NCBI GenBank assembly: GCA_951406725.2
Contig: OX597836.1
Span: 28,582,001-28,646,000 of the forward strand
DNA: 64,000 bases
From: Octopus vulgaris
Taxonomy: Eukaryota
Reading direction: 5' to 3'
Shown piece after piece: positions 668-60,408 of the stretch (its first letter is position 1; each line of letters opens with the position of its first letter). Position numbers and translations under genes: made by a program. The notes below the pieces were generated by a model. It was given only the letters and a program-made list of their open reading frames with translations, had not been told where the DNA came from and made no database searches.

Positions 668-835
668 CTGTTTTGTCTTTGTTCTTCGTCTGCGTGAGAG
701 ATTGTGATTCTCCCACAGGTGGTACGATGCATTTTTCTTCATCAGATTTATCTTCACAATCTGGCCAGTCATCGCATCGTTGGTGCTGTGGAATACATCT
801 GCCATTCTTACATTGGAACTGGTTGGAAAAACAAG
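668..835 (-). CDS. Exon: LDLa repeat 14 ([35 protein letters not shown]); gene continues past the left edge
   Basis: Manual translation; gaacag| ... |gtatga; 168 nt; phase 1-1; no stop codon. Confidence 0.92.

Positions 836-60408: not shown

Follow-up and report, generated by a model that had tools for sequence, protein, structure and literature searches.

The closest described systems are the type II transmembrane serine proteases (TTSPs), which are defined by Asp189, by activation after Arg or Lys and by a C-terminal protease domain (PMC10167312). Their autoactivation is driven by clustering, and they can be shed (PMC7834812, PMC10167312); for enteropeptidase (TMPRSS15), its MAM, CUB and LDLR modules have been proposed to recruit substrates (PMC13012022). 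Enteropeptidase is built as SEA-LDLa-CUB-MAM-CUB-LDLa-SRCR-protease, and corin carries one C-terminal trypsin-type protease without MAM or SEA. Nudel of Drosophila and the bee is a type II protein with trypsin-type chemistry, no MAM domain and the order TM-LDLa-protease-LDLa-inactive protease-LDLa. Insect ModSP and HP14 are secreted and arranged as LDLa4-5-CCP-Wonton-protease (PMC10036332). The MALRD1 and MALRD2 proteins combine many MAM and LDLa domains, and the Trichoplax MALRD protein that we examined has a C-terminal TM segment and neither protease nor SRCR.

The window analyzed here is a stretch of 64,000 nucleotides of Octopus vulgaris (contig OX597836.1, positions 28,582,001 to 28,646,000), AT-rich animal DNA that is rich in microsatellites. 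A six-frame motif scan placed the LDLa, His57 and Ser195 motifs all on the minus strand. With splice sites set by hand, 25 minus-strand exons (60408-668, a span of 59.7 kb) were joined into an in-frame chain; all 25 have AG/GT ends, and they splice to 3756 nt, or 1251 codons, with no stop. The encoded domain order is LDLa-SRCR-LDLa2-SRCR-like-protease-LDLa-MAM-LDLa10. Per-exon Pfam searches covered every exon (24 of 25) except the 38-nt one, which was too short. The cut-off was passed by 13 of the 14 exons of LDLa type, including all 10 after the MAM domain, as well as by three of the four protease exons, the second MAM exon and the SRCR domain. No match was obtained for the first MAM exon or for two exons of the SRCR-like domain, and the post-protease LDLa exon fell below the cut-off (E 0.084), yet has six Cys. 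The window model corresponds to residues 907-2157 of the NCBI O. vulgaris protein P0002, which is named after MALRD2. P0002 comes from the same locus (100% identity) and is therefore not independent of the window DNA; its orthologues are. The features are listed below, with protease residues numbered by alignment to enteropeptidase.

60295..60408, minus strand: LDLa exon, the first inside the window, the gene beginning upstream (Pfam; starts at P0002 residue 907)
56804..57246, minus strand: SRCR domain, exons 57246-57093 and 56970-56804 (Pfam; one mucus peptide in the first exon)
53778..53903, minus strand: LDLa exon with a weak acceptor (Pfam, splice scoring)
51382..51492, minus strand: LDLa exon (Pfam; a mucus peptide spans the junction to 49801)
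46866..49801, minus strand: degenerate SRCR_2-type domain, exons 49801-49678, 47916-47809 and 46903-46866 (own HMM match at P0002 1136-1224; Pfam SRCR_2 called in P0005; a mucus peptide spans 47809/46903)
44476..44650, minus strand: protease exon 1, with the Cys1 equivalent (44648), activation site Phe|Val (44609-44604) and His57 (44486)
41189..41451, minus strand: protease exon 2, with Asp102 (41318) and Cys122 (41258)
38133..38263, minus strand: protease exon 3, with Pro189 (38144)
36856..37015, minus strand: protease exon 4, with Asp194, Ser195 (37009), Gly216 and Ala226; no stop, phase-1 donor
35441..35548, minus strand: post-protease LDLa exon, atypical spacing, six Cys
32201..34325, minus strand: MAM domain, exons 34325-34179 and 32563-32201
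22489..31122, minus strand: post-MAM LDLa exons 1-3 (31122-31000, 26493-26356, 22623-22489) (Pfam; Argonauta order match)
9918..11992, minus strand: post-MAM LDLa exons 4-5 (11992-11858, 10049-9918) (Pfam; nearest to repeats 2-3)
668..5639, minus strand: post-MAM LDLa exons 6-10 (5639-5445, 4155-4009, 2475-2329, 1625-1479, 835-668) (Pfam; spacers rich in Thr/Pro/Lys)

The initial annotation, made from the sequence alone, had described one gene with an internal catalytic domain, in which the GDSGGP exon lacks a stop and splices in phase 1 into LDLa-MAM-LDLa10 with the frame still open at the window edge, and our model bears this out. The exon (37015-36856) runs from phase 0 to phase 1 without a stop codon. 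Scored with a PWM trained on the other 24 exons, its donor at 36856 is among the best 0.7% of GT sites on the minus strand, and the acceptor at 35548 is among the best 1.8% of AG sites; the phase-1 intron between them measures 1307 nt. Reading past the donor leads through a Cys/Leu tail of pure microsatellite to a stop at 36677. Some 700 amino acids follow the protease exon inside the window, which makes the catalytic domain internal. Since a donor closes the final exon (835-668), the gene extends beyond the window; a tblastn search identified no additional exon in 60409-64000 or below 668. On gene structure alone, the window almost certainly holds the middle part of one O. vulgaris gene.

To follow the protein beyond the window, P0002 was read with our own HMMs from Pfam-defined seeds, which gave the order LDLa-MAM4-LDLa-SRCR-LDLa2-SRCR-protease-LDLa-MAM-LDLa16-Frizzled. 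Upstream it adds an LDLa and four detected MAM domains. Downstream it adds six LDLa and a partial Frizzled domain, and the LDLa5-Frizzled run at this end aligns with the LDLa-Fz2 region of corin. A fifth MAM probably lies in the gap at 405-586, since P0004 has five, and the cut-short Frizzled domain indicates that P0002 is probably incomplete at both ends; our homologue search returned no cephalopod model longer than P0002. The protease-to-LDLa junction was also found in P0001 of O. bimaculoides (83% identical, database name TMPRSS9), in P0003 of Argonauta and in the coleoid-type proteins P0004 (2219 aa on a contig of at most 8282 nt) and P0005 (1392 aa on a contig of at most 5650 nt). Compared with the 59.7-kb octopus exon span, these contigs are so short that P0004 and P0005 appear to be spliced sequences. 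LDLa repeats 1-3 after the MAM are one-to-one best matches of the Argonauta repeats, with their order kept, and repeats 2-5, which lie on both sides of a 10.5-kb intron, are mutually closest, the pattern that tandem duplication of exons inside one gene would produce. Orthologue support for the tail reaches only the first two to five LDLa after the MAM, and repeats 6-10 had no one-to-one match. Between O. vulgaris and O. bimaculoides the Ser195 exon is identical at 53/53 residues, compared with 68-93% for the other eight segments compared (68% for exon 1). With Argonauta as outgroup, the comparison of window 44650-31000 with P0001 revealed 31 substitutions in O. vulgaris versus 15 in O. bimaculoides (p 0.026); the excess lies mostly in the activation-site exon and could reflect selection or paralogy.

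The N-terminus was examined in the orthologue P0004, which begins with a cytoplasmic tail, a TM segment (73-91), a SEA domain (124-224) and a stalk that is 41% Ser/Thr/Pro. A TM-SEA N-terminus is present in P0004, Mya, Mactra, Owenia and Lineus. The type II charge bias, in which the C-side is the more negative of the two flanks, was found in 7/7 proteins checked, including a shark enteropeptidase control. A GS motif was identified in 14 of 22 SEA domains, that of P0004 among them, and we take the latter to be the self-cleaving motif of MUC1-type SEA domains. No TM helix was called in P0002 and the TM-SEA exons lie outside the window, upstream of it, so for O. vulgaris we infer the anchor from P0004 and the bivalve relatives; on these, the octopus protein is most likely type II membrane-anchored.

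Analysis of the protease domain revealed His57, Asp102, Asp194 and Ser195, together with Cys residues for the 1-122, 42-58, 136-201, 168-182 and 191-220 bonds, pairings that we assign from known S1 disulfides. The activation site in the window is Phe|Val-Gln-Tyr-Gly, and P1 is Phe or Tyr in 5/5 coleoid-type proteins. All five also have P-G-A as the 189/216/226 triplet and no Asp189. We know of no characterized protease with Pro189, and the specificity is for that reason an extrapolation. Tryptase has the triplet D-G-G and chymase S-G-A (PMC4646688), and P-G-A matches that of chymase at two of three positions. Across 41 protease domains, a hydrophobic P1 occurred with a non-Asp189 residue in 25 and Arg/Lys with Asp189 in 8, a hydrophobic P1 with Asp189 in none and other combinations in 8; the 41 sequences are related, so that this pairing describes a pattern and does not amount to an independent test. 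These data suggest chymase-like specificity and self-activation of the octopus protease, and, most simply, the domain would be an active enzyme that prefers aromatic residues and cuts its own activation site when clustered. The residue before His57 (window position ~44489) is Glu in P0001, P0003 and P0004 and Ala in the window and P0005. An extra Cys is present in protease exon 1 of the window and of P0001.

Set against the TTSPs, the octopus protein shares the modular stem of MAM, LDLa and SRCR (with SEA seen only in P0004), the S1 His-Asp-Ser triad and the Cys for a stem disulfide, where the residues are present and the bonds are predicted. The cytoplasmic tail and single TM are seen in P0004, Mya and Mactra and are absent from P0002. 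In contrast to a TTSP, the octopus protease is not C-terminal, and it has Pro189 and a Phe P1 in place of Asp189 and Arg/Lys activation. Enteropeptidase resembles it in the TM-SEA start (P0004), the MAM and LDLa stem, the LDLa-SRCR-protease core and the Cys1-Cys122 tether. It was also the best PDB sequence match (7wqx, E 5.5e-40), and an enteropeptidase cluster was the best match in the Atlas (0.90), which is limited to clusters of 50 or more and showed no cluster of this family. The octopus protein differs in having no CUB, an internal protease, Phe/Tyr rather than Arg/Lys at P1 and no Asp189; enteropeptidase identity is ruled out by the absent CUB and by the AU test below. Unlike the Trichoplax MALRD protein, P0002 has protease and SRCR and no TM, and MALRD2 is, by domain content, a misfit as a name for the octopus gene. 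With corin it shares the LDLa-Frizzled run at the end of P0002.

Molluscan models with the order MAMn-LDLa-SRCR-LDLa2-SRCR-protease (Mytilus 'PRSS7', Tegillarca, Mercenaria, Mya, Mactra and Acanthosepion) have the same stem order and the closest protease domains, with Pro189 in 5/6 and TM-SEA in Mya and Mactra. They differ in that the protease is C-terminal, the six models ending 6-30 aa after it without the LDLa-MAM-LDLa tail; they are automatic annotations, and no study of these models turned up in our literature search. Owenia P0011, Lineus P0007 and relatives, with the order TM-SEA-(Fz)n-LDLa-SRCR-protease-LDLa-MAM, have the same cassette, short linker and Cys spacing as octopus, and their proteases have a mostly aromatic or Met P1 and no Asp189. 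These proteases form a separate clade (Ser/Thr/Ala189) with three to four MAMs past the protease, and the Owenia and Lineus proteins end in a second or third protease. We mapped 51 of ~380 proteins, picked by hand for domain content or for matches extending past the protease, so that counts out of 51 are not frequencies. Protease-LDLa-MAM was identified in 19/51, comprising five coleoid-type proteins, Owenia, Lineus and 12 further proteins; the architecture had been thought possibly lineage-specific, and its cassette in an annelid, a nemertean and these further proteins speaks against that. A non-protease domain follows a protease in 37/51, including proteins of amphioxus, a hemichordate and a starfish, insect SEA proteases and TMPRSS9, so that Nudel does not stand as the exception it had been taken for in the initial annotation. 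Within the sample, the full coleoid combination is confined to coleoid-type sequences, and no named orthologue was found, in agreement with the earlier reading.

The protease tree was built from 48 of 62 domains after 14 near-duplicate or degenerate rows had been dropped, and ModSP sequences were not part of the protease trees. Coleoid proteases (100/99) grouped with the molluscan MAM-SRCR models and P0149 (100/97); the group received 94/87 under a mixture model (41 rows), and Pro189 is common to most of it. AU tests on 24 rows rejected a clade of coleoids with Nudel (p-AU 0.018) and of coleoids with enteropeptidase (p-AU 0.002). A single clade of all cassette-bearing proteases, a group picked after seeing the first tree, was also rejected (p-AU 0.005), which leaves two histories for the tail, loss in bivalve-type genes or shuffling. 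The cassette bearers have the linker length and the Cys spacing of the post-protease LDLa in common. A coleoid LDLa profile ranked the post-protease repeat first in 10/14 other proteins and the reverse profile in 3/5, missing it in P0002 and P0003, which is moderate support for a shared repeat. In a MAM tree (57 rows), the first post-protease MAMs formed no clade and needed five to seven changes, which neither supports nor rejects a shared tail origin. An old spiralian protease-LDLa-MAM cassette that was lost in bivalve-type genes is plausible, with shuffling as the alternative. Insect TM-SEA-LDLa3-SRCR-protease-LDLa proteins (P0039, P0050, P0098 and P0327) were sister to Nudel in the first tree (92/87) and had no resolved position in the mixture-model tree. 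The C-terminus of P0276 (Magallana gigas) has a gapped protease, a Cys-rich domain and a hydrophobic end, and is possibly a fused neighboring gene model.

Published proteomic data on O. vulgaris skin mucus were compared with P0002. Table S1 of PMC10138644 gives, in the part available, at least 6 PSMs and at least 5 peptides for one paralarval transcript ORF of 1824 aa. All 5 of the peptides listed occur in P0002, at 217, 792, 952, 1122 and 1203; three are in the window, two of them spanning the junctions 51382/49801 and 47809/46903, and one PSM is weak (PEP 0.023). These matches show that the gene is translated and that its stem reaches the mucus, the protease and tail not being among the peptides listed. 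Ten motifs from the protease or tail had no match among the listed peptides, in a table whose underlying search database may lack the tail. All five lie upstream of the activation site (chance ~0.04 if tryptic peptides are equally detectable), so the form present in mucus may be either a shorter isoform or an N-terminal fragment that has been released. A role in mucus, one of those first suggested, fits these listed peptides; for the egg coat, also suggested, we found no evidence. PMC11431876 reports unnamed 'MAM and LDL-receptor' proteins as up-regulated.

Taken together, the best explanation, to which we give a probability of roughly 55%, is a skin-surface mosaic serine protease, anchored in the membrane as a type II protein, that would be shed, self-opened at Phe, tethered and substrate-recruiting. 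The full chain would read cytoplasmic tail-TM-SEA-mucin-like stalk-LDLa-MAM5-LDLa-SRCR-LDLa2-SRCR-protease-LDLa-MAM-LDLa16-Frizzled, possibly with more to follow. The SEA domain is predicted to self-cleave at the GS motif, whereby the ectodomain could be shed into mucus. The zymogen would be opened after Phe (Tyr in orthologues) rather than Arg/Lys. Without Asp189, and with P-G-A near the chymase S-G-A, the enzyme would prefer an aromatic P1; together with the aromatic activation site, this would allow clustered molecules to activate one another. The cleaved protease would stay bound on both sides, by Cys1-Cys122 to the stem and by the peptide chain to the LDLa-MAM-LDLa tail, and such double attachment would make it a tethered processing enzyme. 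The substrates that the MAM and LDLa arrays may recruit would most likely be components of mucus or a zymogen acting downstream.

Four other explanations were weighed against this tethered enzyme. Two concern what the gene is. It could be two adjacent genes joined only in the model, one for a protease that finishes with the GDSGGP exon (stop 36677) and one for LDLa-MAM-LDLa, as might be read from the six molluscan relatives that stop 6-30 aa past the protease, from the stop that readthrough of the exon does meet and from the tail being without a mucus peptide among those listed. However, the strong donor and acceptor flank an intron of 1307 nt, the readthrough tail is microsatellite, the junction is repeated in four other coleoid-type proteins, two of them on spliced-length contigs, and the protease-LDLa-MAM cassette is conserved in worms, and we consider two genes highly improbable. 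A cephalopod Nudel orthologue with a role in the egg coat or in patterning the embryo would share with Nudel the type II topology and an internal protease between LDLa repeats. The domain order of octopus does not match, Nudel has an Arg activation site, a D-G-G triplet and no MAM, the common clade was rejected and the peptides are from skin mucus, so that this identity is largely refuted.

The other two concern function. As an immune cascade starter on the skin, like insect ModSP and HP14, the protein would bind through its LDLa repeats to a pattern-recognition protein on microbes, concentrate as a zymogen and self-activate. HP14 and ModSP do use LDLa-dependent recruitment and autoactivation (PMC10795361), and the non-basic activation site, the occurrence in skin mucus and the faster O. 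vulgaris branch would fit as well, but ModSP is a secreted protein of different order (PMC10036332 Table 2) and P0002 has no CCP/Sushi match; we regard this role as unlikely, although it leads the alternatives. Next in rank, and also unlikely, is an enzyme of the second tier, whose Phe site would be cut by another chymotrypsin-like protease, or else a scaffold with little catalysis, in which Pro189 and the odd residue next to His57 would leave hardly any activity and the MAM/LDLa arrays would act in the mucus layer. Pro189, the Glu before His57 in 3/5 coleoid proteins, a cuttlefish paralogue without His57 and Ser195 (P0031) and the non-catalytic nature of all mucus peptides listed point this way, whereas the triad, Asp194 and disulfide Cys are intact and the Ser195 exon is the most conserved of the segments compared.

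The locus is already annotated but misnamed, and its protein works like a TTSP yet fails two defining features. The gene and its relatives break both TTSP rules, the C-terminal protease and Arg/Lys opening, together and across molluscs, an annelid and a nemertean, and databases list such proteins as MALRD2, TMPRSS9 and PRSS7. The earlier reading was right in part; it overlooked the probable TM-SEA anchor and a chemistry unlike that of trypsin. The architecture is a reshuffle of familiar domains; a literature search, in which most subscription journals were not covered, found no published description of it or of the accession numbers. If Phe/Tyr self-activation is true, the protein is a candidate starter of surface proteolysis in cephalopod skin mucus and offers a natural Pro189 pocket. 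A wider and more tentative idea, which we would not bet on, is an undescribed spiralian branch of membrane-anchored proteases in which the Arg/Asp189 switch was replaced by an aromatic activation site and a matching non-trypsin pocket. Such enzymes would start themselves and stand apart from cascades of the trypsin type. Its coleoid member would combine the molluscan MAM-SRCR stem with the old protease-LDLa-MAM cassette and an LDLa tail grown by exon duplication. Its end may be a second, corin-like Frizzled-LDLa-SRCR-protease module, comparable to the further proteases at the ends of the Owenia and Lineus proteins; a single chain would then carry an entire cascade in the skin mucus of the octopus.

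Several further observations were made on these sequences. The cuttlefish paralogue P0031 is from Acanthosepion pharaonis and has the same stem, with its degenerate protease domain at the C-terminus. Rfam and ARAGORN gave no matches on the window. An intron ORF at 37554-38003 (minus strand, 150 aa) has no Pfam match and is perhaps a mobile-element remnant. Another ORF at 10292-10870 (minus strand, 193 aa) gave weak Pfam zinc-ribbon matches only, and presumably resembles the 3' end of a LINE reverse transcriptase. The 10.5-kb intron contains decayed LTR-retrotransposon pieces at 12799-16653 (minus strand), with a zinc knuckle (16459-16653), RVT_1 (15282-15755) and RT_RNaseH_2 (12799-13236). The largest microsatellite in the window is an AT array of 693 bp (28247-28939). 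Dispersed repeats with many copies account for ~9.7 kb of the window in 41 blocks, which we assume to be probably SINE-like.
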